From positions 26,592 to 90,591 of the forward strand of contig JAOZUO010000003.1 in the NCBI GenBank assembly GCA_029938605.1: a stretch of 64,000 nt of DNA, given 5' to 3'. Below, in pieces: positions 2,180 to 61,489 of the stretch. Positions within the stretch are counted from its first letter, which is position 1, and each line of letters starts with the position of its first letter. Source of the DNA: Deltaproteobacteria bacterium (GTDB taxonomy: Bacteria; Myxococcota_A; Polyangia; HGW-17; JAJRWW01). The notes under the pieces are model-generated. The model saw nothing but the letters and a program-made list of their open reading frames with translations, was not told the DNA's origin and ran no database searches. Both the position numbers and the translations under genes were made by a program.

Positions 2180-3487
2180 TCACCCTGCGCCCCGGCGGTC
2201 AGCCTCGTCCAGGGACTTCCCGGCGTTCTGATCCTCGGAGTCCTTCCGCCGCTCCTGGAGCATGGCGGCGCACCGCTCATTAAACCGCATGCGCTCGTCG
2301 TCGTCGTTTTGCCGCATGTACACCGCGTGGGATGGGAAAGCAAACTCCACGCCGATCTCGGAGAGGGTCTGCATGAGCCGCAGGTTCAGCGACTCGCGCA
2401 CGGCCAGGAACTCCGCCCAGACGGTGGTCTTGGAAAAGCAGTAGATCATGATCTCCAGGGCGGAGTCGGCGAAGTCCGTGAAGTACACCAGCCAGAAGTC
2501 CTGGCGGATCTCCTCGTGGTTCCGCAGCACGTCCCGGACCCGGGCCAGGGCCTCGCGCATCTGATCCGGCGTGGTCTCGTAGGTCACCCCGATGCGGAAG
2601 GAGATCCGTCGCTTGAACATGCGCGAAAAGTTCTCGATGGCCGATCTGGCGAGCGTATCGTTGGGCACCAACACCAGGGAGTTGCCAAAGGTACGCACCT
2701 TGGTGGATCGGAATCCGATGTCCTCCACGGTGCCCTCCACGTCCTTGGTCTTGATCCAGTCGCCGATGTCGAAGGGGTAGTCCCCGACGATGGTGATGGT
2801 CCCGAAGACATTGGCGAGAGTGTCCTTAGCGGCGAGGGCCACGGCGAGACCGCCGATGCCCAGACCGGCGAGGATGCCGGCGATCTGCACGCCCGACTCC
2901 TGCAGCACCATGAGGCCGGCGACGATCACGATGGCCACCCGCATGACGCGATCCACGAAGGGCACCAGCCGATCGTCGAGCGGGGACTTGGTCTTGGCGG
3001 TCAGCTTCGTGAGAAAGTGCGTGCCGAGGCCCACCGAGCGGGTCAGGGCCCAGGCGCCAATGACGATGAGGGCCACCACCAGCCCCTTGTTGCTAATGGC
3101 GTCGTAGTTTGTGGGGTGGCGCGGGAGCTTGAGGATCGCAAGGGCCGCGTAAATGTTCAACACCTGGAGCACAGCGCCGATGGGGGGCCTAACGGCCTCG
3201 AAGAGCTTGTCGTCCCACTCGGCGTCGGTGCGCTTGGACATCCGGGCTAAAAACCCCATGAGGATGCCCAGGATGTACTTTCGGGCCAGGTAGATCATCA
3301 CCAGCACCCCAAAGGCCGCGGCGATACGCCAGGCGTCAAACCCCACAAACTGCTGTGTGATCATAAACTCGTGCACAGTGTCCCAGATCGATCTCCAGTC
3401 CATATCCGCTCTCCCAACTGGGCAAACGCCCCAACTCCTGGGCCGCGCACAGTGGTCCCACCCTAACGGGGCGCAATGAAATTGCAA
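2180..3487 (-). CDS. mechanosensitive ion channel protein, MscS family
   Basis: N-terminal TM helices followed by the conserved MscS beta-domain (ITIVGDYPFDIGDWIKTKDVEGTVEDIGFRSTKVRTFGNSLVLVPNDTLARSAIENFS) and a C-terminal extension. Confidence 0.8.
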   Translation of the reverse strand: MQFHCAPLGWDHCARPRSWGVCPVGRADMDWRSIWDTVHEFMITQQFVGFDAWRIAAAFGVLVMIYLARKYILGILMGFLARMSKRTDAEWDDKLFEAVRPPIGAVLQVLNIYAALAILKLPRHPTNYDAISNKGLVVALIVIGAWALTRSVGLGTHFLTKLTAKTKSPLDDRLVPFVDRVMRVAIVIVAGLMVLQESGVQIAGILAGLGIGGLAVALAAKDTLANVFGTITIVGDYPFDIGDWIKTKDVEGTVEDIGFRSTKVRTFGNSLVLVPNDTLARSAIENFSRMFKRRISFRIGVTYETTPDQMREALARVRDVLRNHEEIRQDFWLVYFTDFADSALEIMIYCFSKTTVWAEFLAVRESLNLRLMQTLSEIGVEFAFPSHAVYMRQNDDDERMRFNERCAAMLQERRKDSEDQNAGKSLDEADRRGAG

Positions 3488-3567: not shown

Positions 3568-4590
3568 ATGAAAAAAATCCTCCTTCTAATTATTCCTGTG
3601 GTCCTGCTGGCTCCGATGAGCGGTTGCAAGACCAAGAAGAAATCGCAGTCCGGCCCCGACAAGAACCTCGAGGCGCTGCAGCAGTCTGGGGAGAAGCTCA
3701 AGGCCAGCGCGTCGGATCTGCTCAGGCGGCGCGGCAAGCTCCAGACCAACCGCAAGCAGATCGATGCGGCCCGCAAGGCCCTGGAAACCAAGCGTTCCAC
3801 CCTGGCCAAGGACGACATCGAGGGCCACGCCAAGCTCGTCAAGGAGGAGATCGCTCTCAAGAAAAAGGAGACTGACCTACGCATGGCCGAGGGTCAGGTC
3901 AACGACAAGCTCATGGGCGCACTGCAGCGACAGGAGCAGTTCTTCGCCCGGGCCACCGCGGCCCTGAAGGCCAAGAGCACCAGTGGTGGCGGGGACGCCA
4001 CGTCCAATGTGCGTGGTCGGGAGCACGGAGTGGCCCTGCGGGAGAAGGCCGTGGCGCGCCGGGAGAAGGCCGTGGCCCAGCGGGAGAAGGCCTTAAACGA
4101 CCAGTACCGGAAGATCGTCGACTACAAGGCCAAGAAGTGCGCCGTATCCACCACCATGGTCACCACCATCTCCGCGCCCTCCATGCCCGCAAGCGGCGGC
4201 GGGCGCAGCTACACCAAGGCAGACGCCAAGGCCGCCTACGCCAGGGCCATGTCGACCATGTCGAGCAAAGGGATCCGGATATCGGATCTGCCCTCGGGCT
4301 TCTCCAAGCTCATCAGCAACATCAAGAAGTTCATCCGTAAAAAAGAGTACGCCCGGGCCAAGATCGGCGCAGACCAGCTCCGGGCCACCCTGCGCTCCAT
4401 CAAGATCAATCGCGGCTTCGTGGGCGCCAAGATGGGCCGCCTGGCGGCGTACATCCGCCGGAAAAAGCTGAGCACCGCCAAACGCGAGAAGGTCAGCAAG
4501 CTCTTCGTGCAGGTGACCACGGCCTTCACCGACGGCCGGTTCTCCTCGGCCAACGGAAAGATCAACCGCATCTACGGCGTGATCAGGTAA
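3568..4590 (+). CDS. lipoprotein with a long coiled-coil region, function unknown
   Basis: Lipoprotein signal MKKILLLIIPVVLLAPMSGC. Heptad-like, KE-rich sequence and a repeated REKAVA motif. Confidence 0.5.
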   Translation: MKKILLLIIPVVLLAPMSGCKTKKKSQSGPDKNLEALQQSGEKLKASASDLLRRRGKLQTNRKQIDAARKALETKRSTLAKDDIEGHAKLVKEEIALKKKETDLRMAEGQVNDKLMGALQRQEQFFARATAALKAKSTSGGGDATSNVRGREHGVALREKAVARREKAVAQREKALNDQYRKIVDYKAKKCAVSTTMVTTISAPSMPASGGGRSYTKADAKAAYARAMSTMSSKGIRISDLPSGFSKLISNIKKFIRKKEYARAKIGADQLRATLRSIKINRGFVGAKMGRLAAYIRRKKLSTAKREKVSKLFVQVTTAFTDGRFSSANGKINRIYGVIR

Positions 4591-4656: not shown

Positions 4657-5148
4657 ATGTACAGACTGTGCTCTCTGATGTTTCTGCTCGCTGGGCCGGG
4701 CGATGCTTCGCCGCTTCCCTCGGCGGAGCTGCCGAGCTACGGAGGGTTACTTCTAAAAACCATTCTGGCGCTGGTGATCGTCATCGGGCTGGCCTACGCG
4801 CTGCTGCGCTGGGGGCTCAAACGACTGATGCCCGGGCACGCGTCCGGTGGTGGCGAGATCAGCATTCTGGATCGGCAGCCCTTGGACAGCCGCCGCCAGG
4901 TGGTGCTGGTCAAAGCCTACGGGCGTTACCTGCTGCTGGGCGTGGGGGACGGATCGGTCACGCTCCTGACAGAGCTGGAGGCCGAAGCGGTGGCCGAGGC
5001 CGAGCGACGACGGGCGGCCCATCCCCCGAAGCGCTTCGCCGACGTGCTGCGCTCGGCCCTGGGGCGTAACAAACCTCCCCCCGAGCCCATCACCCCCAGC
5101 GACCACAGCGATGATCGCCAGGCTGACAAGGACCGGCGCGATGAATAG
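4657..5148 (+). CDS. fliO: flagellar-type export apparatus protein, FliO-like
   Basis: Single TM helix (ILALVIVIGLAYALL) followed by the FliO-like motif EISILDRQPLDSRRQVVLVKAYGRYLLLGVGDGSVTLLTEL. Sits immediately upstream of fliPQR. Confidence 0.55.
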   Translation: MYRLCSLMFLLAGPGDASPLPSAELPSYGGLLLKTILALVIVIGLAYALLRWGLKRLMPGHASGGGEISILDRQPLDSRRQVVLVKAYGRYLLLGVGDGSVTLLTELEAEAVAEAERRRAAHPPKRFADVLRSALGRNKPPPEPITPSDHSDDRQADKDRRDE

Positions 5149-5306
5149 GGTCCGACCAGGAATAGGCCGGTCAGCTCAGGTCGTCGAGGCGCCCCGGTGG
5201 CAAGGACCAAGGAGCGAGGAAATCTCCATGATTCCGAGTGACGAGGGACGCAGTCAGCGGGGATGGATCGGCGGGCTGAGCGATCTGCCTATTGCTGGTC
5301 GGACCC
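5145..5306. repeat. ~160-bp imperfect palindromic element with 16-bp terminal inverted repeats (family A/B), between fliO and fliP
   Basis: The 5' end gggtccgaccaggaat is the reverse complement of the 3' end att(g)ctggtcggaccc. It is ~88% identical to 10900-11062. It contains ggagcgagga-N7-ATG (5211-5230) in frame with fliP. Confidence 0.75.
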
Positions 5307-5311
5307 ATAGA

Positions 5312-7213: not shown

Positions 7214-9460
7214 ATGGGAAAATGGGAAAAGCTCGCGGATGACATCGAAGACGAAGAGGCGCATACCAAGGTGCCCGAGTTCGAAGACTCAGTGGTGGAC
7301 GTGGTGGATCCAGCAGACGTCACCATGCCGCCAGAGATCCACGGCTGTCAGGTGATCGAGCGGCGCCATCCGGGCGGACAGTCGGAAGTGTTCTACTGCC
7401 GGCCTGACGGCGTGGTCTACTCCGAAGTCCAGGCCACCGAGCTCATGAATGCTTTCCGGGCCGGTGCGGCGGCTGGCGGCCCGCCAGCGGTTAGCGGCCC
7501 GGCGGCCGACATGGTCATCGACACCCTCGGCTCCGGAGAGGACGTGCCCGCGCAGCTCCGAGGCGCGAAGCTGGTGGACCGGGGGGGGAGCTTCTTTTTC
7601 ATCACGGTCGATGGCGGGGAGCTGCCCAAGGAGATAGGCGACAGCCTCTTTGAGGCCTTCGAATCCCCCGAGGTCACCAACCCGGGACTGGAGGTCAAGG
7701 CCGCCGACCTGCCTCAGGAATCCATGCCGGCGCCTCTGCCCACCGAAACGGTCATCGACACCCTGGGCGACGGTCCGGACGTACCTCCGGCGCTCCGCGG
7801 CGCGAACCTGGTGGAGCGGGACGGTAGCTTCTTTTTCATAACACCGGACCAGGAGGCCATCCCCAAGGAGATCGGCGACGATCTGTTCGACGCCTGGGAT
7901 GCGCCGGAAGAGGGGGAGGCCGTCCCCCAGGAACAACCAGCCGCGCCAACGCCGGAGGCTGAGGTACAAGCGCCTGAACCCCAGGCTCAAGAGCCGGAGC
8001 CGGAGCCGGAGCCAGAGCCGGAGCCGGAGCCGGAACCTGAACCCGCACCAGCGCCAGAGTCGGAGGCAGAGGTTCAAGAGCCAGCACCAGCACCAGCGCC
8101 AGAGGCGGAAGCGGAGCCAGAGCCAGAGCCAGAGCCGGAGCCGGAACCAGAGCCGGAGCCGGAGCCGGAACCAGAGCCGGAGCCGGAGCCGGAGCCGGAA
8201 TCAGAACCAGAACCAGAACCAGAACCAGAGGCGGAAGCGGAGCCAGAAGCGGAAGCGGAAGCGGAAGCGGAAGCAAGCAGCCCTGGACCGGAGGAGGAGA
8301 TCCTGGAGTTCCTCGGCACCGGGGAAGAGGTCCCGCCGAGGCTTCGAGGCGGCCGCATGGTCAAACGGGTAGACGGCTTCTATTACGTGACAGCGAACAA
8401 CGAAGTCCTCCCGGCCGATATCGGCGAGGACCTCATTGAGGCCTGGAACTCCGAGGCGGAAGCGGAACCTCCCCCGGCCGACGACCGGGAACCCAACCCC
8501 GTGAACAAACCCTTCGGCTACGGCGACTACGGACCGGTCACCGTCCCGAACTACGTCCTGCCCGAGACCATCGACGTACCCCAGTCAGCCGCTCCAACGG
8601 GGCCGAGCGCCGCGCCCACCGCCGACGAGCCCACCGCCGACGAGCCTACCGCCGACGAACCCACCGCCGACGAGCCCACCGCCGACGAACCCACCGCCGA
8701 CGAGCCCATCGTCGACGAACCCAAAGTCGAGGCAACCTCCGCTCCAGTCACCGAGAAGCTGGAGGCCGGGAGTCTGGAAGATCGGCTCAGACAAGCCGTG
8801 ACCACCGTCCGACGGGAGGCGACCACGGGGGCCTTCAATGTGGCCCAAGCCACCCCCACGCCCGAGCAAATGGAGTCGCTGGTGAACGAGCTCATCGACT
8901 CCGAGCCCACAGACACCATGCTCTCACGCATGGTACTTCGCTCCACCCAACTGACCGAGCAGATCTCCGAAGCCTGGGCGGACGACGAGAGCCGGGGCCG
9001 CCAGGCTCTGCACCGGGACGTAGTCAGCGGCACCTTGCTCGTAGTCGCCGTGAACCCAACCCAACTCAAGGACCTGGATGTGCTCGGCCTGCTCACCCTC
9101 CTTCGCTTTCGCACCACGAAAGGGACCGACCGGGTGGTGGCCGAATTGGCCAAGACCCTACGCTCCAAGCTGGCCGACGATCTCAACCGAGCCATCAAGG
9201 CCTCCTCCCTCACCGACCAGGTCCTGCAGGGCGCACGATCTACGGCCGGCGTCGTCGTCCATGGACAGCTATGGCCCGAGGGGGTCACCCTCCTGGTCGC
9301 CCAGACCATTACCCGCGAGATCTCTCTGACCGTAGGTGAGGTATTGAGCGGCTATCGGGAGAAGGGATACGCCTTCCCGGGCCTTGCGGAAAAGGTCCTC
9401 GAAGCCTATCGTCACTTCGCGACGGATATCGGCGAACGAGTGGCCCGTGCCATCGAGTAG
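7214..9460 (+). CDS. large acidic repeat protein of unknown function
   Basis: 748 aa. It has three tandem ~55-aa repeats ([49 protein letters not shown] and two variants), a long (PE)n/(EPEA)n tract, six PTADE repeats, and a ~230-aa C-terminal region that is not low-complexity. Confidence 0.7.
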
Positions 9461-10899: not shown

Positions 10900-11062
10900 A
10901 ATAGGGTCCGACCAGGAACAAGCAGGTCTGTTCAGGTCGTCGAGGCGCCCCGCTGGCAAGGACAGAGGAGCGAGGAAATCTCATTGATTCCGAGTAACGA
11001 GGGACGCAGTCAGCGGGGATGGATCGGCGGACTGGGCGATCTGGTTATTCCTGGTCGGGCCC
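10900..11062. repeat. second copy of the family A/B imperfect palindromic element, between the two paralogous lipoprotein genes
   Basis: ~88% identical to 5145-5306. TIRs are gggtccgaccaggaac / attcctggtcgggccc. Carries gaggaaatctcaTTG in frame with the downstream gene. Confidence 0.75.
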
Positions 11063-11940
11063 TTAGCCGATGGTCCTTCGGCCTGATCGTCTTCGCTGGG
11101 CTGGTACTAGCCGACGGTGGCTGCTCCAAGAGTCGGGCGGACGATTTCTCGAAGTTCAAGCCGTCAGAGTCCCTCCAGTCCCCGGGCGCCACTCCGCGTA
11201 CGCAGCTACGCTATCGCCCCCCCGCGGGCCAGGACGTGACCTACCAGCTCATCGTGAACCGTCAGTGCCAAGCCCTCGGCCTCCAGGCGAAGATGCGGCT
11301 GCGGGTGGCCTTGAAGGTGGACACCCTGAGCAGCGGTGGAGGCTCCTTTGTGCTGCGCTTGATCAGCCTACAGCGACTGCAACCCCTTCCCCCCGGCGGG
11401 CTGCCTGAGCTGGGACCCGCCTACGTACTGCTCCAGGGCCGAATCGGACCTCGGGGACGATTGACCGAAATTCAGGACGGCGACAGGTTGCCCACACCGG
11501 TGAACCTCGCCCTCGTGTTGCCGCTGCTGCTGCCCCGTTTGCCCGAGTCCTCCGTGGGCATCGGCGCCACCTGGCGCACGTCGGCTAAGCAGCGCTGGAA
11601 GCGCGTCCATTCCGCCGACGCGCTCACCAGCCAGCCGGGCTTCAACGGCTCCACGGAGGTGCTGCTGCACAGCGCCTACAAGCTCACCGCGCTGCAAAAC
11701 GCCAACCAACCCGTGCTCCAGGGCGACCTCAGTTTCAAGCTCCGCAGCCGCACCCGCGCCCTGAGCCACGCTACCCACCATGGAGGTCAAGGCAAAGCCA
11801 CGGCGCGCTACGTTCTGGACCCCACCACCTCTCTCCCCGTCCACGCCAAGGTCACCCTCCAAGGCACGTACAAGCTACACGCCAACGACAAAACCGCCCC
11901 CATCAAAGAGACCATCGAGCTAACCTTCAAACAGGACTGA
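10984..11940 (+). CDS. lipoprotein, paralog 2. The start is uncertain; a TTG inside the repeat element is the first in-frame start.
   Basis: Same frame as track ORF 10849-11940. Has a hydrophobic leader SFGLIVFAGLVLADGGC and TQLRYRPPAGQ resembling paralog 1. No ATG or GTG lies between the repeat and the leader. Confidence 0.45.
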   Translation: MIPSNEGRSQRGWIGGLGDLVIPGRALSRWSFGLIVFAGLVLADGGCSKSRADDFSKFKPSESLQSPGATPRTQLRYRPPAGQDVTYQLIVNRQCQALGLQAKMRLRVALKVDTLSSGGGSFVLRLISLQRLQPLPPGGLPELGPAYVLLQGRIGPRGRLTEIQDGDRLPTPVNLALVLPLLLPRLPESSVGIGATWRTSAKQRWKRVHSADALTSQPGFNGSTEVLLHSAYKLTALQNANQPVLQGDLSFKLRSRTRALSHATHHGGQGKATARYVLDPTTSLPVHAKVTLQGTYKLHANDKTAPIKETIELTFKQD

Positions 11941-22957: not shown

Positions 22958-23565
22958 CGTCTCGCAGCCTCACAGCCTCGCAGCGCACTGCATATCCGCT
23001 GAAGGCCCCACGCGGGGAGACGGATCTCTGAATAAGGTCCAAACCGGCAGAAATCGATGTACTTCGTTTTCAGCAGAGTTTCTCCCTGATAAAGAAAAAA
23101 ATCCGAACACCCAGACGTCAGGGGTCACCCACACCGCCAGCGCTACGCACCAGGCTCGCGGTCAACGGCGTGTCAGTACAGTGAGGGCGGAGGAGGATAA
23201 TCGGACGCCAAAGACGTGCTCCACTGCGGCGAGGCAGACGAACGTCGCCACCGGTGGTTCCGCCGCCGGGCAGACGGCCGGCAGGGACCACCGGAACTTC
23301 CCAACTGGGGCCCACCGGCGCTGAAGCGAACGTCGCCCAATCCGGTACTCAGGGATCCCGTGGGCTGTCCCGTCGTGGATCGGCACCCTTCGCAGCTCAC
23401 AGCGGGCGCATACCTGTCTAGGTGCCCAAACCGCATTCCCGATGGTTGAATCCTTGGGTTTTTCCCCGACTGCGCCAACCGCTGGTGAAAAAACTCATCC
23501 CAGCACCACCGATGTTCTCGCCGCCGCCGACACCTACGTCGACCAGCGCTTAGTGGCCGTTGAAT

Positions 23566-23752
23566 GTTTCACTTTTTCGCCAGATAAATCACCTCTGCCA
23601 AATCTGAAACAGAAAGGGCCCTTTGGTGTTCCACTTTCGGCCCAGATGCGTCATCTCAGCCAAATCTGAAATAGATTTGGCCCTTTGGTGTTCCACTTTC
23701 CCGTCAGATAAATCATCCCAACCGATTCTGAAACAAATCTCCGCTGACAGAG
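23566..23752. repeat. ~62-bp tandem repeat x3, each unit carrying a hairpin (ccaaatctgaaatagatttgg), inside a 1.2-kb non-coding region
   Basis: The units begin gtttcactttttcgccagataaatc..., gttccactttcggcccagatgcgtc... and gttccactttcccgtcagataaatc.... The palindrome in the central unit is perfect. Confidence 0.6.
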
Positions 23753-31859: not shown

Positions 31860-31961
31860 CCCCTCCCCTTCCCCCACGCTGTTTTCTTGCGCCCCAGGCA
31901 CGGACGCGGCAAAGTGACCCGGTAAAGACTCTCCAGACCCTATCGGATGAGGTAGACGGCC

Positions 31962-34649: not shown

Positions 34650-34721
34650 GGGCGGGTAGCTCAGTGGGAGAGCGTCGGCCTTACAAGCCGAGGGTCACAG
34701 GTTCAAGCCCTGTTCCGCCCA
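34650..34721 (+). tRNA. tRNA-Val (anticodon TAC)
   Basis: Cloverleaf: acceptor GGGCGGG/TCCGCCC, D-arm GCTC-AGTGGGA-GAGC, anticodon arm TCGGC-CTTACAA-GCCGA, T-arm ACAGG-TTCAAGC-CCTGT. Confidence 0.85.
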
Positions 34722-34738: not shown

Positions 34739-34812
<74 letters not shown>

Positions 34813-38962: not shown

Positions 38963-39733
38963 TTAGGACATCTGACTACGCAGGGTGGCCAGCAGTTGCC
39001 GCGCCTCGTCTGGAATATCGTCGAGGTTGGGATACGGGGGTGCGCCCGACAGGTCGGCGTCGATGGCCTTGGAGTCGTAGGGCAGCACACCCAGGACCGA
39101 TATGGGCGCCAAGGCCTTGGTTACTGCGGCGGTGTCGGCACCATCGCGCACCTTGTTCACCACGGCGGCAATGTTCTTGATCCCGATCTCGGCGGCCAGC
39201 TCAGCGACCCTTTGGGCGGTCTTGATGGACCGCGCCCCGGGCTCCACCACCACGATCATCAGGTCCACGGCCGTGGCCGTGGCGCGGCCGAGGTGCTCCA
39301 CTCCCGCCTCCATGTCCATAATGAGGTGGTCCTTCTGGCCGAGTATAAGGTGGGTCACCAGGGCCTTGAGCATGACGCTCTCGGGGCAAATGCAGCCCGA
39401 TCCTCCATGATCCACGGTGCCCATGAGCAGCAGGTGTACGCCGTCCTTCTCTACGGAGAGCTTGTCGGGCAGATCGTCCACTGTGGGGTTCAGCTTGAAA
39501 AAGGACCCAATGGCACCTGGCTTCGCGCCCGTGCGCTCCTCGATGAGCTCCTTGAGCTCGGTGACCGGAGCGATCTCATCACCATTTTCGATGCCCAGGG
39601 CGGACGCCAGGCAGGGCGCGGGGTCCGCGTCCACGGCGATAACCCGATCTCCCTCGGCCGCCAGCAACCGGGCCAACAGCGCCGCCACGGTGGTCTTGCC
39701 CACGCCACCTTTTCCACTGATTCCAATCTTCAT
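38963..39733 (-). CDS. cooC: CO dehydrogenase/acetyl-CoA synthase nickel-insertion ATPase (CooC/AcsF family)
   Basis: MKIGISGKGGVGKTT deviant Walker A. MinD/ParA-like. Lies within the acs operon. Confidence 0.8.
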   Translation of the reverse strand: MKIGISGKGGVGKTTVAALLARLLAAEGDRVIAVDADPAPCLASALGIENGDEIAPVTELKELIEERTGAKPGAIGSFFKLNPTVDDLPDKLSVEKDGVHLLLMGTVDHGGSGCICPESVMLKALVTHLILGQKDHLIMDMEAGVEHLGRATATAVDLMIVVVEPGARSIKTAQRVAELAAEIGIKNIAAVVNKVRDGADTAAVTKALAPISVLGVLPYDSKAIDADLSGAPPYPNLDDIPDEARQLLATLRSQMS

Positions 39734-39817
39734 GATCTCTCTCCATAAACGTCTGGTCTAGAACCTAAACACACATGGCACCAGAGCAATACAGAATTGA
39801 ACGTTCGCGCTGACACA

Positions 39818-40110
39818 TCGCTCGCTTAGCCCCCGCTACGGATGTTCCCCTTGCCGCTCCAGCGGGGCGCTGCAAGAGCGGCTGCGGAGAAATCCTCCAC
39901 GGGGGCGACGCTCGCTGGGTGGTGCTTACACGGAAATTTGCGAGGCATACGATACTCGATGATACGCGCTGTGCCGCTCGCTTAGCCCCCGTTCCGGATG
40001 TTCCCCTTGCCGCTCCAGCGGGGCGCTGCAAGAGCGGCTGCGGAGAAATCCTCCACGGGGGCGACGCTCGCTGGGTGGTGCTTACACGGAAATTTGCGAG
40101 GCATACGATC
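39818..40110. repeat. tandem direct repeat, 2 x 156 bp, in the cooC-acsE intergenic region
   Basis: The unit ctcgcttagcccccg(c/t)t(a/c)cggatgttccccttgccgctccagcggggcgctgcaagagcggctgcggagaaatcctccacgggggcgacgctcgctgggtggtgcttacacggaaatttgcgaggcatacgat recurs at 39821 and 39977. Each unit holds the hairpin gccgctc...gagcggc. Confidence 0.8.
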
Positions 40111-40174
40111 AACGGAGCGGACGCGGAGCGGACTATCCGAGCTCGGTAACGAGGAAAACGGCTCTACATAAGTG

Positions 40175-40262
40175 AGCGGAGCCCGCACGGAGGATTTCAC
40201 GGCAGCCGCTCTCGCAGCGCTTCGCTGGAGCGGCAGAGTGAATCCTTCGTGTGGGCGAAGCG
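40175..40262. repeat. partial third copy of the 156-bp unit, in inverted orientation
   Basis: cggaggatttcacggcagccgctctcgcagcgcttcgctggagcggcagagtgaatcc is the reverse complement of the unit core with a few substitutions. Confidence 0.65.
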
Positions 40263-40325
40263 AACGGTTCTACGGCGGGATCTACAGCCCGAAGGTGTGT
40301 TTTGAGGGAGGCTGGGGGGGGGGAG

Positions 40326-41219
40326 CTAGAGATCTAGCCAGGAGTCGGAGTAGAGCTTTTGGCCGAGGAGGACCTGGGTGGTCTTGACGTAGTCGGTCTC
40401 TTCCTTGGACAGGCCGGCCATATCGGGTACGTCGCCGTCCATGATCTTGCCCACGATGGTCTCGATGTCCTTGCGCTTACCGCGGGCGATGTCCATGAGG
40501 CCCTTGTCGAGGGGATCCACGATGGCGCCCTTGAGGCCGGCCCTCAGGAGCATGGCAAAGTAGGTCTGGTTCACCAGCGGGCGAAGCTTATCCGGGCAGC
40601 CATTAGAGATGTTGGACAGGCCACAGGTGGACATGCACTCGGGGAACATGTCGGGCATCATGAGCATGAAGTTGGTGCAGCCCTGGGCCTCGATCTGCTG
40701 GGAGCTGACCGGCACCACGATGGGATCCACCCAGATATCCTCACCCGCTAGACCCGCCTCCTGGGCGGGGTACACGATCTCGGAGGCGAGCACGCCGCGC
40801 TCATTCTCGTCCCGGGGGATGCCCTCGGGGCCCCACAGAAGCGCCACCATGCCGGCGTCGTACTTCTTGGTGAAGGGCATGAGCTTCTCCATCCGGTCCG
40901 GGCGCGCCATGATGGAGTTGATGACGGCCTTGCCGCCCTTGTTCTTGTAGACCTTGAGCCCCGCCTCCATGGCGTCTACGTTCATGGTGTCTAGGTACAG
41001 CGGCAGATCAGAGACCTCCTGCACCGCGCCGACGACAAACTGCATGAGCTCGTCGCCCTTTTTGCGGGCCGGCCCCAGATTGACGTCCAGATAGTCCGCC
41101 CCCGCCTCGGTGAGCCTCACCGCGAGATCCTGGATAGGTTTGACGTCCCGGTTCTTCATGGCCGGGCCGATGGACTTGGACATCACGTTGATGTTTTCAG
41201 CGATTACCTTGAAGGACAT
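40326..41219 (-). CDS. acsE: methyltetrahydrofolate:corrinoid/iron-sulfur protein methyltransferase
   Basis: Pterin-binding TIM-barrel signature (IGERINV-like MSFKVIAENINVMSK..., GADYLDVN, VDPLV-like IVDPLD). Confidence 0.85.
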   Translation of the reverse strand: MSFKVIAENINVMSKSIGPAMKNRDVKPIQDLAVRLTEAGADYLDVNLGPARKKGDELMQFVVGAVQEVSDLPLYLDTMNVDAMEAGLKVYKNKGGKAVINSIMARPDRMEKLMPFTKKYDAGMVALLWGPEGIPRDENERGVLASEIVYPAQEAGLAGEDIWVDPIVVPVSSQQIEAQGCTNFMLMMPDMFPECMSTCGLSNISNGCPDKLRPLVNQTYFAMLLRAGLKGAIVDPLDKGLMDIARGKRKDIETIVGKIMDGDVPDMAGLSKEETDYVKTTQVLLGQKLYSDSWLDL

Positions 41220-41295: not shown

Positions 41296-42645
41296 CTAGG
41301 CGAAGTGCTGCTTGAGGTAGGCCGGGATGAAGCTGGCCTCACGAGGACCGACCATGACCTCCCACTCGTCACCCAGCTCCTCTTCGAGGTCACCGCTGAT
41401 GATGGCCGCCAGACCGGGGATGACGATCTTCTTGTTGGCGATCTTGTCGTTGCAGCCCTGCTTCTTCATGGATTCGCCGATGGAGTCACCCACGAACTTG
41501 CCTGCCGCCCATGCGGTCAGCACGGAGAGGCCGTCGGTGTCCTTGACGTAGAGCCAGCACGGGATCCGGCTGTTCTCGATCTCGCCACTCACGATGAAGT
41601 AGGTGAGCGAGAAGTTCGAGGTCACCACCACGGGGCTGTCCGCCGTAGCGTCGTTCATGGAGTAGAAACCCTCGTCGGTCTTCATGGGCCGCTGCGGGTC
41701 GGTGTAGATGTTCAGTCGCTCCAGGAGCAGCGGGAACAGGTACTGGCCCTGGAAGTCGGACAGAATGATGATGCCGGCGTACTTGGCGATGCCGGCGGCG
41801 GCAAGGACCGCCTCCTTCATCGGGGTGTCAGCCATGTCGCACACCGGGGCGATGGTCGGGAAGCCGAAGGTGCGGTCCTTGGCCGTGAGGGCCAGGCGCC
41901 GGATGGCGGTCTGGTCCCGAAGCTGATCGCCGGCGGTGCGGGCACCGGAGTCGAAAACCACGTCCTTGATGCCGGCCTTTTCTGCCGCCTCGGACAGCTC
42001 TTTGATCTCGTCCAAGCCGTTGCCGATGACGCCCAGCGACGCGCCGTGCTCCTTGGCCAGTCCACCCATGGCGTCCAGGTTGTCCTTGGTCACACCGTAG
42101 ATGAGCACCTTGGAGTCGTCTCGCTCGGCCAGACCAGCTTTGATCATGTCCGGGTTGTCGGACCAGAGGATCAGCCCAGCGTCCGTAGCGCCGCGCACCT
42201 TCTTGACCAAGGCAGCGTAGGTGTCAGCGTTGCCGGACTCAGCCTTGAGGGCGAACAGATCGCCCTTGAGGAGAAGACCCACCCGCTCGTACTGGTGGTC
42301 GACGAAGCACTTGAGCTTACGGTCGACCTCTTCGGCGGAGTCGCTGTCGCTGATCTTCAGGGCCAGACCCGTGGGGTTGAAGAAAGTCTTCTCGTGACGG
42401 AACATCACGAGCTCGCCACCGGTCTTGAAAGCGTCTTTTCCGGCGCCGATCGCCACGGGGCGGATGGGCGGCGCGGAGGCCTCCGACAGCATGGCCTTGG
42501 CCTCGTCACTCACGTAGGGACATGCGCTCAGCTCAGCCTTACCTGCGGCGAGGTTCATGGCAAACGCCAGGCACGTAGGGACGCCGCACTCCTTGCAGTT
42601 CGTCTTGGGCAGCAACTTAAAAATCTGGATTCCGGTCAATCCCAT
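41296..42645 (-). CDS. acsC: corrinoid iron-sulfur protein large subunit (AcsC/CdhE)
   Basis: N-terminal 4Fe-4S motif TNCKECGVPTCLAFAMNLAAGKAELSACPYVS. Confidence 0.85.
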   Translation of the reverse strand: MGLTGIQIFKLLPKTNCKECGVPTCLAFAMNLAAGKAELSACPYVSDEAKAMLSEASAPPIRPVAIGAGKDAFKTGGELVMFRHEKTFFNPTGLALKISDSDSAEEVDRKLKCFVDHQYERVGLLLKGDLFALKAESGNADTYAALVKKVRGATDAGLILWSDNPDMIKAGLAERDDSKVLIYGVTKDNLDAMGGLAKEHGASLGVIGNGLDEIKELSEAAEKAGIKDVVFDSGARTAGDQLRDQTAIRRLALTAKDRTFGFPTIAPVCDMADTPMKEAVLAAAGIAKYAGIIILSDFQGQYLFPLLLERLNIYTDPQRPMKTDEGFYSMNDATADSPVVVTSNFSLTYFIVSGEIENSRIPCWLYVKDTDGLSVLTAWAAGKFVGDSIGESMKKQGCNDKIANKKIVIPGLAAIISGDLEEELGDEWEVMVGPREASFIPAYLKQHFA

Positions 42646-42747
42646 GTGCCGTTCTCCTAATCGATGGTCTCGGCAGACCTTTGGTGGCCTATCGGGTTCT
42701 TGAGAATTGTTGCCCCCCCGGCGAAGAGCCGAGGGGGGGGGAAATCA

Positions 42748-44961
42748 CTACATCATCGGGTCCATGGTGATCGCCGGGTGACCCTTCTCGGTCAGCCACT
42801 CGAGGATCTCCATCTCATCGGTGGACACGGTCTCGTCGCAGATGAGCTCGGCGAAGTTCTCCGACAGGCCCTGCTTGACGGCCTGGGCGTTGATCCTGTC
42901 CTTGAGCTCTTCTTTGAGGTTCTTGGGCAGCCAGACCAGCCGCCCGATGCCGCCTTCGGCCCTGATGAACTTGCCGGACACCACATACAGCTTGGAGTGG
43001 CCCACAAAGCCCGGGGTCACCGCGCCGCCGCCCACGGTGCCGGCCAGGGTGGTGAACTTCATACCCGAGGGGGTCATGCCGCCGTAGTCGCGATCCACGG
43101 TCATGATGCCGTTACACATGGGCATGATGGCGCTGATGGCCTCGAAGCAGCCGCAGGAAGTCATGGGCTCTTCCATGATGGAATAAGCGTTGTACAGCTC
43201 CACCGTGCCGCGAGAGGCCTGGCGCACGAATTCGTTGACACCCTCCCACTGGCCGCGCTTCTCGTCGATGACGCGCCCCTTCTCGATGGGCTGGTTCGGC
43301 CCCGTGGGGGTGATTTCGAAAGAGGCCTTGCAGTCCAACCAGGAGTAGGCACCACAGAGGCCCGTCCGCTCAGGGGTCACCACGCACACGTGGCTCGGAG
43401 CGAAGGACTGGCAGAGAGTACAGCTGTAGTAGGTCTCCTCGTCCTCGTCGACCATGCCCTCCACACGGGCGTCACGCACGGCGTAGGATGCCCGCGCCAA
43501 CTTGAGGATCTTCTTGGCGTCCTCTTCCTTGGTGAAGATGGTCACCTTCACCTTGTCGAGAATGGCGCCGAACTCGCTGTGGTACTTGGCCCAGATGATC
43601 TCGCCAATATGCTTGAAGCGGAAGCCCTTCTCGTAGGCGGTCTTGGAGATACGGAACCAGGCGATGTCGCGCTGGCCAATGTGCATGCTGCCCTGGGCGA
43701 AGTTCACCAGGTGGTGGATCTGCCGCTCCAGGATGGGCTCGAAGTCGGCCTGGAACTCGCGGCCCGCCACTTCGACCTTAATGCCCAGGGAGCACTTGGA
43801 GTTCTCGCCGAGCTCATCGAGATCGGGACCAATGAGCTGAATGTCGTGGTCCTCGATGGCGTCCATCTCGGCCGAGGTGGTCCACTCCACGGCGAAGGTG
43901 CCGCCACGACCGCCACCGCCCTCGAAGTAGATGTCCGGCCCACGCACGCGCTCGCCCTCGAAGGCGGCACCGTAGGCTACGGGAACCTCTACCTTGGACA
44001 CGTTGACCTTCAGACCACGGACCTCCACCGAACGCTGAACGATTTCGTCGTGGGGCACATTGGAGACCACATGCTCGTAGGTACACACGCCCGTGGGCAG
44101 GATCTGCGGAATGGGTGTGTCGGCGATAACCGGGAAGCCGTAGTTCACGCACATGAGGCCGTTGGCGTACCACTGGTCGGTGACGTGACCCAGGGTCATG
44201 GCGAAGGCGAAAACGCGGTCCTTGTTGTAGATGAGGACCCTGCGGTAGTCGCCGGGCTCGATGCCGCCGAAGGTCAGGGCCGCACGGGTGGCGAACCCCG
44301 CGGCGAACACCGCCGCGGAGACGTCCGGGCCGAAGGAGACCAGCCGGGTGCCCCAGCCGATCTCCACACCCGCCTCTACGAGCTGCTCGGAGAAGCGCAC
44401 GCCGTTGTGCTCGCCTGCCATGAAGACGTACAGGTTCTTCTGCTGCAGCTCCAAGGCGATCTGAACGGCGATCTCCGTGGTGGGCGCGGCACCTAGGATA
44501 GCGGCAAAGCCCGGGGCCGTGCCGTCGACGAACTCCACGCCGCGTTTCCGCAGGATCACGTCGTCGGCGGCGCCAAGCCAGATGTTATCGTCAGTGACAT
44601 CCTCGCCCCGGACATAGAAGTCGGGGAACTCGAGGTACCTCATGCACTCTTCCATCTCCTGGGCGAACAAGGCCACTGCGCCCGCGTCCAGGGCTGGGCC
44701 CAGGTAGGGCAGATGCACATGCTCCTTGACCAGGGGCGGCAGGAGCATCCGACAGCGGTCGAAGACGGGACCCATGTCTTCCAGCGTCTCGATCTTGTGA
44801 CCGAGCAGGCCGTAGATGCTGGGCAGGTAGTAGCCGGTGTTGGGGAACCCAACCTCGGTCTTACCGCCGTGCGTATCCATCATCTCGGTATATTTTTTTC
44901 GCACGCGCTCCACGATTGCGTGGGCGCCACGGATTCCAGCGGATGCGATGATCTTAGACAT
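42748..44961 (-). CDS. acsB: acetyl-CoA synthase catalytic subunit (AcsB/CdhC)
   Basis: 737 aa with global AcsB architecture. C-terminal A-cluster region with the CGAYSWLDCK...CTLCQSFAPSHVC motifs. Confidence 0.85.
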   Translation of the reverse strand: MSKIIASAGIRGAHAIVERVRKKYTEMMDTHGGKTEVGFPNTGYYLPSIYGLLGHKIETLEDMGPVFDRCRMLLPPLVKEHVHLPYLGPALDAGAVALFAQEMEECMRYLEFPDFYVRGEDVTDDNIWLGAADDVILRKRGVEFVDGTAPGFAAILGAAPTTEIAVQIALELQQKNLYVFMAGEHNGVRFSEQLVEAGVEIGWGTRLVSFGPDVSAAVFAAGFATRAALTFGGIEPGDYRRVLIYNKDRVFAFAMTLGHVTDQWYANGLMCVNYGFPVIADTPIPQILPTGVCTYEHVVSNVPHDEIVQRSVEVRGLKVNVSKVEVPVAYGAAFEGERVRGPDIYFEGGGGRGGTFAVEWTTSAEMDAIEDHDIQLIGPDLDELGENSKCSLGIKVEVAGREFQADFEPILERQIHHLVNFAQGSMHIGQRDIAWFRISKTAYEKGFRFKHIGEIIWAKYHSEFGAILDKVKVTIFTKEEDAKKILKLARASYAVRDARVEGMVDEDEETYYSCTLCQSFAPSHVCVVTPERTGLCGAYSWLDCKASFEITPTGPNQPIEKGRVIDEKRGQWEGVNEFVRQASRGTVELYNAYSIMEEPMTSCGCFEAISAIMPMCNGIMTVDRDYGGMTPSGMKFTTLAGTVGGGAVTPGFVGHSKLYVVSGKFIRAEGGIGRLVWLPKNLKEELKDRINAQAVKQGLSENFAELICDETVSTDEMEILEWLTEKGHPAITMDPMM

Positions 44962-52258: not shown

Positions 52259-53047
52259 TCAAGTTGCAGTATTTAGAAAATTCAACACCTTTTGTGCCGC
52301 CACGGCAGCGGGTGAGGAGGCCTGAAGGTCAAGCAACGACTTCTGAGCCAGATCCGCGGCGGTAACATCGGAATCCATTGGAACTACAGTGAAAATGTCT
52401 ATACCTAGCTTCTTCGCCTCCGCCAGAACCGCTTCGTTGAGTCCCTTTTCGGGGTCGGTTAGCGAGCCCTCACCAACTATTTGGTTCACCAAAACGAGCT
52501 GCTGAAGAACTTCGATCCCCATTTCCTCCACCAGCCCAATGACGCGATGCGCCGACCGAATGCCCCGTACAGAGTGATCGGACATGATCACCATGAGATC
52601 TACATGGGCCGCCGTACGCCGGCTCAGGTGCTCCAAACCGGCCTCGTTGTCCACCACTACGTACTTGTAATTTTCGGACAGGGTCTCCACCGCGCCCCGC
52701 AGCAGATTGTTCACATAGCAGTAGCAACCGGCACCCTCGGGGCGACCCATGACGAGTAGATCCATCCCCTCGTCCTCTACGATGATTTCGTTGAGCTTGT
52801 ACTCGAAGAACTGCCCCTTGGTCATACCCGCCGGAAGGGTGCCCGAGGCCGCGCCAAACTCTTCCCGAACCATGCCGATGGTCTTGGGTGCCTCGAGCCC
52901 GAGGGCCTCGGAGAGGGTGGCGTTGGGATCGGCGTCCACGGCGAGCACCGGGGCCTGACCGCTTTCGATCAGACCTCGGATGATCATCGCCGCAAAGGTG
53001 GTCTTGCCGGTGCCGCCCTTGCCGGCCATTGCAATCAGCTTCGCCAT
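52259..53047 (-). CDS. cooC: second CooC/AcsF-family nickel-insertion ATPase
   Basis: MAKLIAMAGKGGTGKTT deviant Walker A. MinD-like. Paralog of 38963-39733. Confidence 0.8.
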   Translation of the reverse strand: MAKLIAMAGKGGTGKTTFAAMIIRGLIESGQAPVLAVDADPNATLSEALGLEAPKTIGMVREEFGAASGTLPAGMTKGQFFEYKLNEIIVEDEGMDLLVMGRPEGAGCYCYVNNLLRGAVETLSENYKYVVVDNEAGLEHLSRRTAAHVDLMVIMSDHSVRGIRSAHRVIGLVEEMGIEVLQQLVLVNQIVGEGSLTDPEKGLNEAVLAEAKKLGIDIFTVVPMDSDVTAADLAQKSLLDLQASSPAAVAAQKVLNFLNTAT

Positions 53048-59185: not shown

Positions 59186-61489
59186 TCAGGAAGCCGTTGG
59201 GTCTGGGCGCTCATCTTCTACGCCCTCGCCATCTGGAGTCAGGTCGTCCACCTCCAGCAGCTCAGTGGTCTCGTTGTGAATGACTGGCTGCAGGGGAGGT
59301 GCAACCGTCTGGTCAGTGCCGGCCGTAAGGTCCGTGTCGATCGCCGGGTCCGAGGGGACCGCCGGATTCGCGCCGGCCATAGAATCCGCGTTGGCCGTCG
59401 GGTCAGTCCCGGCCGTCGGGTCAGTCCCGGCCGTCGAATCCGCGTTGGCCTTCAAGTCCATGCCGGCCTTGTGCTCAGCGCTGGCCTTCAGGTCCATACC
59501 GGCCTTGTGCTCAGCGCTGGCCTTCAGGTCCATGCCGGCCTTGTGCTCAGCGTTGGCAGCAAGGTCCGTATCAGTGGTCGGATCATGGGTGCCCTCCAGG
59601 TTCGCGCCGGCCGCACGGTCCGTGTCGGTCGCAGGGTCCGAGGGGACCTCCGAGTTCGTGCCGGCCTCCGGGTTCGTGCCGGCCTCCGGGTTCGTGCCGG
59701 CTTCCGGGTAGGTCGCGGCCTCGTTCTCGAGGTCGCCCACTTCGAGCAGCGCCGTGGCATCGTCCGACAGAGACGGCTGAGGCGGCTGAGACGGTAGACC
59801 GGAACCGGAGTCTTCGATCTGAGCCGTGGGGAGCTCATGGAAGCTCACGGGCGACAAGGGCGTGTCGGAGTTGGACTTGCCCTCTAGATCCGCCAGGTCC
59901 GGGTCCGCTGGGTCCAGCCCGGGATCCAGCCCGGCGTCCGGGGCAGCCACCAACGGCATCTCCGCCGTATCCGGGGCCACCGGTCGCTGCCGCCGGGCCA
60001 CACGATCGGCAGACTGCTGTATGGCTTCCCGGTTTGCCTCCAGGTCCAGAATGACGGTGTTGGCCGTGTGCAGACCGACACCGCTCGGTCCCGGAGCCGG
60101 AGCCGGCCCCGGACCCGGGGTCGGGGGCAATGTGGGCTCAGTGGCAGGGGATTGAACGTCAGGCTGAGCCTTGGCCTGAGCCTCGGGTTCTGCCTCGGGT
60201 TGCGCCGAGACCCGGGCCACCTCGCCAAAGCCATCGCCCTTGCTCCACAGCACCTCCGACACAGGTTGCAACACCTCGGGATTGGTGGATTCGAGCCGCC
60301 GGATCCCGCTGTTGTCGAGGATCACCGTGGGCTCGGCCGACATTGCCGGGTCGTGCACCCGAGAGCCTCCACCGTCGCCCACCTCCACCTCGCCGTCCCG
60401 CGGGGGCTGCATGAACTCGCCCTCCTCCGCTCCGGCAGGAATGGGCGAGAACTTGGAGAAGTCAGCATCCGGACCCAGGGCATCGGCGATGAGATTCGTG
60501 CCGATCTTGGTGCTGTCGGCGCTGTCGACCACAAACTCTTCGAGGGCCCGCAACTCCTTTTCGATGTCTTCGGCGAAGAGCTGCCGCACAAACCGTCCCA
60601 GGTGAGACCGGGTGAGATCCGGCGCGTGTACCACCAGGAAGTTGTGCAGGGCGTTGGCGAAGTCCTCGGCGGTCTGGTAGCGATCCGACGGCTTGCGGCT
60701 CATGGCCGTGTCCGCGATGGCCGCCAGGGCCGGCGGGATCATGGGATTGCGCTCTCGCACGGGGGTGTAGCGCGTCTCCCGCACCAGCACCAGCAGCTCC
60801 ATCTCGTTGGGCGCCAGGAAGGGCGGCACCCGGGTCAACAGCTCGTAGAGCACCGACCCCCCGGAGAAGATGTCCGTGCGGGGATCCAGCTTGCGCCCCA
60901 TGGCCTGCTCCGGGCTCATGTACTTGACCTTGCCCTTGATCACCCCGGAGCGGGTCTGCACGGTGGAGAGGGTCGCCTTGGCGATGCCGAAGTCACAGAG
61001 CTTCACCTCGCCGGCGTAGGAGCAGATCACATTGGACGGGCTCACGTCCCGGTGAATGAGATGGAGCGGCCGCCCCTCCCGGTCTTTCTGTATGTGCGCC
61101 TGATGCAGCCCCCGCATGATGTGCATCATGATGAAGGCGCAGATCTCCTGCGGGATCCAGCGACGCTGCGCCCGACAGCGGTCCAAGATCGTTCGGCCGT
61201 CCTTGCCGTCCACGTACTCCATGGCGATGAAATACTCACCGTGGGCGAAGCAAAACTCGTAGACCCGGGCGATGGACTCGTGCTCCATGAGGCTCGTGAT
61301 CTTCGCCTCGTCCACGAGCATCTTGATAAACTCCTCGTCCCGGGCGAGGTGGGACAGGATCCGCTTCACCGCCACCATATGCACCCGCCCCTCCTCGTCG
61401 AAGGTCTTGGCGCGATAGATCTCCGCCATGCCGCCGAAGGCGATCCGATCCAACAGGTGATATCGACCGAGCTGTAGCGCTTTTGCCAT
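59186..61489 (-). CDS. Ser/Thr protein kinase with a ~500-aa disordered repetitive C-terminal region
   Basis: Complete Hanks kinase domain (GGMAEIYRA, AVKRI, HRDVSPSNV, DFG, SPEQ). The C-terminus has SAEHKAGMDLKA x3 and GTNPEA x3. Start at MAKALQLGRY (61489). Confidence 0.8.
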   Translation of the reverse strand: MAKALQLGRYHLLDRIAFGGMAEIYRAKTFDEEGRVHMVAVKRILSHLARDEEFIKMLVDEAKITSLMEHESIARVYEFCFAHGEYFIAMEYVDGKDGRTILDRCRAQRRWIPQEICAFIMMHIMRGLHQAHIQKDREGRPLHLIHRDVSPSNVICSYAGEVKLCDFGIAKATLSTVQTRSGVIKGKVKYMSPEQAMGRKLDPRTDIFSGGSVLYELLTRVPPFLAPNEMELLVLVRETRYTPVRERNPMIPPALAAIADTAMSRKPSDRYQTAEDFANALHNFLVVHAPDLTRSHLGRFVRQLFAEDIEKELRALEEFVVDSADSTKIGTNLIADALGPDADFSKFSPIPAGAEEGEFMQPPRDGEVEVGDGGGSRVHDPAMSAEPTVILDNSGIRRLESTNPEVLQPVSEVLWSKGDGFGEVARVSAQPEAEPEAQAKAQPDVQSPATEPTLPPTPGPGPAPAPGPSGVGLHTANTVILDLEANREAIQQSADRVARRQRPVAPDTAEMPLVAAPDAGLDPGLDPADPDLADLEGKSNSDTPLSPVSFHELPTAQIEDSGSGLPSQPPQPSLSDDATALLEVGDLENEAATYPEAGTNPEAGTNPEAGTNSEVPSDPATDTDRAAGANLEGTHDPTTDTDLAANAEHKAGMDLKASAEHKAGMDLKASAEHKAGMDLKANADSTAGTDPTAGTDPTANADSMAGANPAVPSDPAIDTDLTAGTDQTVAPPLQPVIHNETTELLEVDDLTPDGEGVEDERPDPTAS

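Follow-up and report, generated by a model that had tools for sequence, protein, structure and literature searches.

In the malE-malF operon of Escherichia coli, a REP/BIME hairpin acts as a barrier to 3'-exonucleases, and the hairpins of Correia elements are cleaved by RNase III. REPINs are characterized by conserved ends, a middle part with compensating changes, and tandem clusters that include the flanks (PMC3116915). MITEs fold into long stem-loops, are located at the 3' ends of genes and are co-transcribed, and ERIC elements, together with RNase E, provide a precedent for orientation-dependent effects on mRNA stability or processing (PMC3184786). For REP and BIME hairpins as 3'-exonuclease barriers, a general statement is available (PMC3479197).

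The window of this study, that is, the whole stretch of 64,000 nucleotides that was analysed, carries a Wood-Ljungdahl acs gene cluster on its minus strand. The genes around the gap considered here are acsB (42748-44961), acsC (41296-42645), acsE (40326-41219; Pterin_bind), and cooC (38963-39733; CbiA/ParA-type P-loop). The gap between acsE and cooC spans 39734-40325 (592 nt), and the remaining spacers in the acs gene cluster measure 76-102 nt. We consider it probable that this gap holds three members of a dispersed, non-coding, and non-autonomous repeat family of the REP/REPIN/MITE kind. This placement follows from the distribution of the family, its non-coding nature, its doublets and tandem clusters, the compensating changes in its stem, and the lack of target duplications. 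Judged from sequence comparison, the array is an ordinary kind of repeat in a new example and not a control element specific to the acs operon, because related uncultured bacteria have the same unit between genes that are unrelated. The literature on comparable repeats in Myxococcota or in Wood-Ljungdahl-bearing metagenome-assembled genomes yielded nothing specific, and the family appears to be undescribed.

The units resemble the REPIN/REP-RAYT system of Pseudomonas and E. coli (PMC3116915, PMC3337134) in being extragenic, multi-copy, hairpin-forming, and about 100 nt long. The dispersed copies share with REPINs conserved parts and, between them, a variable stem in which compensatory changes are frequent; they likewise include inverted doublets, singles resembling decayed doublets, and tandem clusters with flanks, all without target-site duplication. 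Unlike in REPINs, a single unit is already a 98-nt hairpin, so that a doublet consists of two such hairpins; the ends are direct AGCGAGCG boxes (AGYGAGCG) that pair via tandem G.A instead of inverted REPs of 16-25 nt; the tip is invariant too; and GTAG is not conserved. The two short (about 20-35 nt) inverted REP palindromes with a GTAG-type tetranucleotide, which mark the REP/REPIN class, are absent from the family. With the ERIC/IRU and Correia (NEMIS/CREE) MITEs of 100-160 bp (PMC3184786) the units have in common their size, their intergenic location, in many cases at the 3' end of a gene or within an operon, the expected co-transcription, and the long RNA stem-loop. They differ from these elements in having no sequence similarity to them, in lacking a TA or any other target-site duplication, and in belonging to a high-GC uncultured lineage. 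Like the REP/BIME hairpins of E. coli, they are stable intercistronic hairpins able to give unequal expression of the upstream and downstream genes, but they are three times longer and have an inverted partner with which a duplex of ~90 bp can form. By analogy, unequal expression of acsE and cooC would be the most likely consequence of the units.

Three Hairpin Units in the acsE-cooC Gap

TRF reports a single array in the gap (39819-40109, period 156, 1.9 copies, 98% matches, score 568), in agreement with the preliminary description of the locus, which had placed two perfect or near-perfect 156-bp tandem units at 39818-40110. A repeat search gives two copies of 135 nt in the gap that are 99% identical and differ at 39836 and 39838 alone (2 differences over 135 nt). 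The same search finds an inverted arm (40171-40242) that is 81% complementary to 40001-40072 and likewise to the other tandem copy. The 30-nt tip hairpin has three matches in the window and none in 100 shuffles, and TRF, the repeat search, and this shuffle test together establish that the array is real and non-random.

Two covariance models were used to delimit the units: R1, built from the three units of the window and one relative, and R2, built from 22 units. The core units lie at 39819-39916 (minus strand), 39975-40072 (minus strand), and 40171-40266 (plus strand). The alignment of the copies and the covariance models thus give three full hairpin units instead of the 2.5 copies counted earlier. 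The copy described as partial and inverted (40175-40262) is indeed inverted, but it is complete, with a core unit assigned by the covariance model at 40169-40268.

Unit 1 (39817-39918) is an extended hairpin of 98 nt on the minus strand, in sense with the operon, and lies between two AGCGAGCG boxes, which are located at 39819-39826 and 39909-39916 and read on the plus strand as CGCTCGCT. It scores 119.5 bits with R1 and 104.5 bits with R2 and has a fold of -59.7 kcal/mol. It is adjoined at 39919-39953 (minus strand) by a remnant of a 5' module (..CCTCGCA..CACC..), which constitutes the non-hairpin part of the duplicated 135 nt and resembles the 5' module CCCTCGCAtacccctgCACC of locus L002. In all, the 37 nt beside the hairpin in the 135-nt repeat of the window resemble part of the 5' module. 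A single-copy junction of 21 nt (39954-39974) fills out the 156-bp period between the tandem copies. Unit 2 (39973-40074, minus strand) is the tandem duplicate of unit 1 and scores 119.8 bits with R1 and 104.2 bits with R2.

A spacer of 94 nt (40075-40168), which includes a second 5'-module remnant at 40075-40109, separates unit 2 from the inverted unit 3. Unit 3 (40169-40268, plus strand) is antisense to the operon and belongs to another subfamily than units 1 and 2; its scores are 106 bits with R1 and 99.4 bits with R2. Its fold amounts to -59.8 kcal/mol on its own strand versus -47.8 kcal/mol on the mRNA-sense strand, and its tip and upper stem are near-identical to those of the copies at L009:7383 and L021:7196. 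Neither R1 nor R2 finds further copies within the 64 kb of the window, even with all filters off, and the window therefore contains one cluster only. The number of copies in this genome may be modest.

Two stretches of the gap lie outside the array. On the acsE side, a C-rich and G-poor stretch (40269-40325, minus strand) follows the acsE stop directly and contains a C10 run, seen as G10 on the plus strand at 40314-40323. On the other side is the cooC upstream region (39734-39816, minus strand), with a block that is conserved in the window, L002, and L017. On the minus strand this block comprises TTGCyC (39784-39789), 16 nt, and TAGGTT (39762-39767).

Anatomy and Fold of the Unit

The unit is an extended hairpin of ~98 nt in four parts: a basal helix, a variable long stem, a near-invariant GCCGCUC/GAGCGGC upper stem, and a small tip hairpin. 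Followed along the best-folding strand, the first AGCGAGCG box and 2 nt lead into a long stem interrupted by small internal loops; GCA, the GCCGCUC strand of the upper stem, the tip hairpin, and GAGCGGC come next, and the stem then returns to 2 nt and the second AGCGAGCG box. The gccgctc-N16-gagcggc hairpin that the preliminary description assigned to each unit is therefore present, but it is merely the tip of the 98-nt structure and not the whole hairpin. Across the family, units are 95-109 nt long, and a single unit folds on its own strand with about -60 kcal/mol.

Although the two AGCGAGCG boxes look like direct repeats, they can form an antiparallel helix in which a tandem G.A is framed by 2+2 Watson-Crick pairs. 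Unit 3 has U-A in place of C-G at the second position of this basal helix, and in the copy at L018:7067 (L018b) the basal helix is swapped for a perfect Watson-Crick helix. The basal helix is real, as both replacements demonstrate.

Several copies carry an additional 5' module of about 75-115 nt (..CGCTCRCTTCTG.CGAACTGCGCGCG..CCCTCGC..GCTTCGTTGCCGGGGC..), namely those in L002, L017, L020, L016, and L013 and the copies L021a and L023a. No conserved fold is found in this module; RNAalifold gives -8.7 kcal/mol with unconvincing helices.

Covariation and Strand Preference

For the assessment of covariation, 22 units were aligned independently with MAFFT (A6), and the structure was written by hand. 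Among the 22 units, standard pairs occupy 90% of the cells, versus 39-45% when the partners are slid by 1-3 columns, and changes on both sides occur in 16 of the 32 pairs, versus 3-9 in the slid controls. In 500 shuffles, the observed value was never attained on any of five measures. These results argue that the hairpin structure is under selection. Variation is unevenly spread along the unit: the upper stem is almost fixed, as are the outer pairs of the basal helix, and the long middle stem holds most of the covariation.

In the modelled orientation, G.U pairs number 56 and A.C pairs 5. Two columns contribute 36 of the 56 G.U pairs, and the rest (20 versus 5) points in the same direction. This excess argues that the selected fold is that of one particular single strand, either RNA or single-stranded DNA. 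The orthologous units of L002 and L017, as read from the alignment A6, differ by one compensatory change, two one-sided changes that keep the pair, and two changes that break a pair, a comparison that shows no clear constraint at the level of the locus. The family offers clean covariation, a defined anatomy, and a covariance model that can be rebuilt from 22 unit coordinates.

Dispersal of the Family

In JGI metagenomes, 16 loci matched a relaxed pattern scan, and at 13 of them R1 confirms a total of 18 copies; R2 confirms the same set, and the remaining three loci are chance matches. The family as counted here consists of these 18 copies on 13 metagenomic contigs, the three units of the window, and one each in L002 and L003, all of them intergenic. 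A pattern scan of 185,579 GTDB species representatives gave no true copy and one chance match inside a coding region, and no copy was found in viral contigs, plasmids, or phages. Tetranucleotide correlations of the repeat-bearing contigs with the window are 0.94-0.98, except for L021 (0.89) and L011 (0.90), whereas four chance loci fall at 0.77-0.86. L017 shares synteny with the window and is 84% identical to it in nucleotide sequence. The correlations and this synteny indicate that the repeat-bearing contigs come from the same lineage as the window, and the family is usable as a marker for this uncultured lineage.

The genes next to the copies have housekeeping or regulatory roles and are unrelated to one another. 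Among their products are urocanase, an RpoD-like sigma-70 factor, saccharopine dehydrogenase, a phosphoribosyltransferase, a GntR regulator, VIT, VWA, and TPR proteins, a STAS protein, a metallophosphatase, and a molybdopterin oxidoreductase. In the preliminary description, another mobile repeat family had been named as one possibility, with a search for the unit at other loci as the check and its occurrence at many unrelated loci as the sign of a generic repeat. The 18 further copies, which lie beside unrelated genes at many unrelated loci in close relatives, bear this possibility out. No mobilising gene or transposase was found beside any copy, in the 64 kb of the window or in the about 10-15 kb around each metagenomic copy, and no full-length IS with matching ends was found in the window, the examined loci, or the plasmid and phage collections.

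Most family copies are single units. L009, L021, L023, and the window (units 3 and 2) each have an inverted pair, and the window and L010 have tandem pairs. The four inverted pairs uniformly have facing 5' ends, across spacers of 117-167 nt elsewhere and 94 nt in the window, and the doublets measure 296-378 bp. This shared arrangement argues that the inverted pair is a defined composite and not a chance neighbourhood. The doublets show the layout of a MITE, with terminal inverted repeats and a short core, but the two members of each doublet belong to different subtypes. No consistent target-site duplication, such as flanks MITEs, was found at single units or doublets, and a symmetric 7-mer in L021 is within chance expectation. 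There is also no shared partner gene next to the doublets, whose neighbours encode unrelated membrane, TPR, and other proteins; L021:7588-8418 compared with L023:1322-2209 gives E = 0.28.

The acsE-cooC Junction among Relatives

Relatives were found through AcsE, whose nearest named relative is that of a Polyangia genome (74%). At 79-82% AcsE identity, the unit is absent from the junction in L005-L008, L026, and L027. In L026 (AcsE 81%), acsE and cooC are separated by 37 nt and the junction is otherwise empty, whereas L008 (79%) has a DUF3786 gene and a 97-aa ORF at this position, and L005-L007 (81%) have a VapB-PIN pair together with DUF3786. L027 (82%) has a different PIN pair on the other strand, on a contig that ends before cooC. 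In these relatives, the comparison of homologous acs operons proposed in the preliminary description finds an empty spacer, DUF3786, or toxin-antitoxin genes at the junction. In L002 and L003 (AcsE 90%) and in the syntenic L017, the gap is about 410-420 nt long and contains one unit. These comparisons show the acsE-cooC junction to be a general hot spot for insertion in the clade, at which toxin-antitoxin pairs, DUF3786, and repeats land. Such a recurrent landing site matters for comparisons of acs gene clusters.

The distance from the unit to the conserved tgtgtttaggtt block downstream is 41 nt for unit 1 of the window, 43 nt in L002, and 38 nt in L017. The unit upstream of cooC is shown to be old by this common position, 38-43 nt from the block, in the window and two relatives, and unit 1, which occupies the same position as the units of L002 and L017, is probably the oldest copy. 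With only 2 differences between its copies, the 156-bp segment is shown to have been tandemly duplicated very recently. L002 and L017 have CGCTCGCT boxes upstream of their unit, and L017 has a weak inverted model match of 17.7 bits at 4207-4247; together these look like a decayed inverted partner. In L025, the closest relative found (AcsE 96%), the 85 nt after acsE are like L002 and are not unit 3. From the absence of unit 3 from these 85 nt of one short contig, we infer that it was recently acquired or renewed, as a common current subtype near L009:7383 and L021:7196.

Transcription across the Gap and Proposed Mechanism

The distribution of the family and its presence or absence among relatives suggest that it is mobile. 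Selection probably keeps the hairpin on one folded single strand. A putative transposase that recognises single-stranded hairpins would copy the units in trans, as suggested by the missing target-site duplications, by a base and a tip that are conserved, and by compensating changes in the middle. In the acs transcript, the units would form either very stable local hairpins or an imperfect duplex of ~90 bp between unit 3 and unit 1. The fold stability of the 592-nt gap corresponds to z = -8.3, and for the predicted read-through mRNA the long duplex of units 3 and 1 gives -241 kcal/mol, versus -200 kcal/mol for local hairpins only. The large stem-loop between the repeats that had been proposed earlier is thus thermodynamically favoured in a read-through mRNA, but the covariation sits in each unit's own hairpin. 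By analogy with described systems, the hairpins would probably act as a 3'-exonuclease barrier or as an entry site for RNase III or RNase E. With either, cooC would become uncoupled from acsE, an effect known from REP, ERIC, and Correia elements. Any effect on the acs mRNA is probably a by-product and not a dedicated control of acs.

A boundary between transcription units after acsE is possible, as suggested by the C-rich, G-poor tract at the 3' side of acsE and the conserved block before cooC. The 60 nt after the acsE stop contain 30 C and 9 G, the most extreme composition among the 46 called genes of the window, and comparable C-rich tracts after stop codons lie beside units in L009, L021, L023, L024, and L018. 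No intrinsic terminator was found in 39600-40450, and no T-run follows any unit of the family, so that the combination of a GC-rich stem and a U-tract is lacking, and a strict sigma-70 consensus scan gave no promoter in the gap. TTGCyC-N16-TAGGTT was considered as a sigma-70 promoter; its -35 hexamer matches at only 3 of 6 positions, and a promoter role is a guess. Candidates for a sigma-54 promoter in the 5' module or upstream of cooC, inspected by eye, have a wrong spacing or a wrong -12 GC.

Alternative Explanations

The units may instead be functional structured RNA elements (3'-end or 5'-leader hairpins or small RNA genes) that were spread by duplication and are kept for their RNA function, and that at acs separate the expression of acsABCDE from that of cooC. 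We regard this reading as unlikely. Points in its favour are the strong covariation and strand-specific G.U excess, the position of the cooC-upstream unit held in three genomes, and the C-rich, G-poor tract after the acsE stop, as at other transcription-unit ends. It also fits the orientation of single units, 9 of which are sense and 2 antisense to the nearest or surrounding gene (one-sided binomial p about 0.03), and the placement of the 5' module and unit, which at four independent loci (acs/cooC, L013, L016, and L020) closely precede a gene in the sense direction. In all four doublets, however, the unit closest to either flanking gene runs antisense to it, and the scans yielded neither a U-tract terminator nor a consensus promoter. 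An Rfam 15 search of the window and nine loci at gathering thresholds passes tRNAs alone, and a permissive search of the gap gives MIR918 at 45 bits against a threshold of 268, a match of the generic long-hairpin type. The 5' module is without a conserved fold, the changes between L002 and L017 give no clear locus-level constraint, and REPINs and MITEs covary likewise without being dedicated RNAs (PMC3116915). It is rather improbable that the units are an undescribed class of strand-specific structured RNA which, with the 5' module, makes up a portable expression module (a 5' leader, a 3'-end stabiliser, or an outward promoter cassette) in an uncultured, Wood-Ljungdahl-bearing, Myxococcota-like lineage; at acs, such a module would set the stoichiometry of the CODH/ACS structural genes versus the CooC maturation ATPase.

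A dedicated role of the array in regulating the Wood-Ljungdahl operon, as the attenuator, processing site, or protein-binding platform considered in the preliminary description, is very unlikely. The array does lie inside an otherwise compact gene cluster, its fold stability is exceptional (z = -8.3), the long-range duplex is favoured, and a unit is found at the junction in three related genomes. An acs-specific cis-element is expected to be conserved at the junction and absent elsewhere, whereas a unit of this family is present at 13 or more unrelated loci without acs genes, the acs operons of relatives at 79-82% AcsE identity are without it, and even genomes that have it vary in how many units they carry and of which type, with one in L002 and L017 and three in the window. 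We give hardly any credence to an assembly artefact as the source of the second tandem copy, or to a decayed or repetitive coding gene in the region, such as a DUF3786 remnant. The tandem copies are almost identical, a 115-aa ORF (39765-40112, minus strand) spans both of them with a period, 156, that is divisible by 3, and DUF3786 is encoded at the junction in relatives. Against a coding origin, tblastn of the relatives' DUF3786, 97-aa, VapB, and PIN proteins gave nothing in the gap or the whole window, the composition of the ORF is non-coding (GC3 0.60 and GC2 0.66, versus GC3 of 0.78-0.88 in the neighbouring genes), and the lengths of the units (95-109 nt) do not keep to multiples of 3 and go with compensatory hairpin changes. 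The 2 differences and the unique 21-nt junction are more typical of a real duplication than of an artefact.

With the preferred placement among REP, REPIN, and MITE elements, the idea of a dedicated riboregulator of the acs operon is replaced by a documented repeat family. The family is usable as a case for the persistence of long-hairpin repeats in high-GC genomes, and it calls for caution before a large intergenic hairpin in a metagenome-assembled genome is taken for a regulator.

Sequences Flanking the Units

A 3' box, TCAAAGGCTC, follows the unit in many copies, and a 5' box, ..GGCTCCGTA, precedes it in several. The tetranucleotide GTAG precedes 6 of the 22 units, with a looser consensus of CCGTA-NN. 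This GTAG pattern and the end boxes AGCGAGCG, which are direct and not inverted, depart from the classical REPIN and MITE.

Insertions at the acsE-cooC Junction

Insertions have occurred repeatedly in this clade at the acsE-cooC junction, which occupies 39734-40325 of the window. Among the relatives found through AcsE, L026 has an empty junction of 37 nt (3126-3164), L008 carries DUF3786 together with a 97-aa ORF (8170-9162), and L005-L007 contain VapB-PIN and DUF3786 (L005:10894-12455). In L027, a PIN toxin-antitoxin pair unlike that of L005-L007 lies 3' of acsE on the opposite strand (1175-2201).

The window (39762-39789, minus strand) shares a conserved sequence block, TTGCyC-16 nt-TAGGTT, with L002 and L017, the relatives with a single repeat unit at this junction; the block lies 30-60 nt upstream of where cooC starts, and the sequence around it diverges between the three. 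This block may serve as the promoter or leader of cooC; it fails a consensus promoter scan.

Basal Helix and 5' Module of the Repeat Unit

In the repeat unit at L018:7067-7168, on a metagenomic contig where the repeat adjoins unrelated genes, a perfect 13-bp Watson-Crick helix (TCCGTTCGCTGGG / CCCAGCGAACGGA) takes the place of both AGCGAGCG boxes. The substitution supports tandem G.A pairing as the predicted normal state of the AGCGAGCG boxes.

Many units are accompanied by a 5' module of 75-115 nt with the conserved patches CGCTCRCTTCTG.CGAACTGCGCGCG, CCCTCGC, and GCTTCGTTGCCGGGGC. It is present at L002:11000-11133 and L017:4127-4260, as well as upstream of units in the contigs L016, L013, L020, L021, and L023, and it also constitutes the spacer of inverted unit pairs, in which the 5' ends of two units face each other. 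Neither a conserved fold nor a promoter was found in the module.

C-Rich Gene Ends

Past the acsE stop codon (window 40269-40325), the first 60 nt of the mRNA strand contain 30 C and 9 G residues, the most C-rich and G-poor composition among 46 gene ends. This tract and the similar ones named below may be Rho-utilisation-like 3' regions. A C10 homopolymer that begins 2 nt past the acsE stop on the mRNA strand, seen as a G10 run at window 40314-40323, could be a site of slippage or assembly error. A comparable C-rich tract is located at the 3' end of a ClpX-like gene (window 31860-31920), and such tracts also follow stop codons adjoining repeat units in L009, L021, L023, L024, and L018.

Other Features of the Window

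The 102-nt acsB-acsC spacer holds a C8...G7 hairpin (tttccccccccctcggctcttcgccggggggg) directly past the acsB stop (window ~42700-42747), the sequence of which is unrelated to the acsE-cooC repeat family. A second CooC/ParA-like P-loop gene lies at 52259-53047, and its Walker A region (52985-53036) shares 73% DNA identity with the Walker A region of cooC (39677-39728). Two adjacent plus-strand tRNA genes (34650-34721 and 34739-34812) were the sole Rfam matches in the whole window.

At 23555-23740, a 62-nt unit is present three times in tandem with 71% identity; the stretch that contains this array has a reduced G+C content (0.56 vs 0.64 window-wide), and the gene caller reports no gene in it. 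A 167-nt direct repeat with 89% identity is found at 5144-5310 and 10900-11066, with 5.8 kb between copies. Short-period tandem repeats of 12, 15, and 18 nt within long ORFs (7978-8294, 8593-8742, and 59293-59738) look like repetitive, low-complexity protein segments; the unit of the 15-nt array (8593-8742) is CCGCCGACGAGCCCA.
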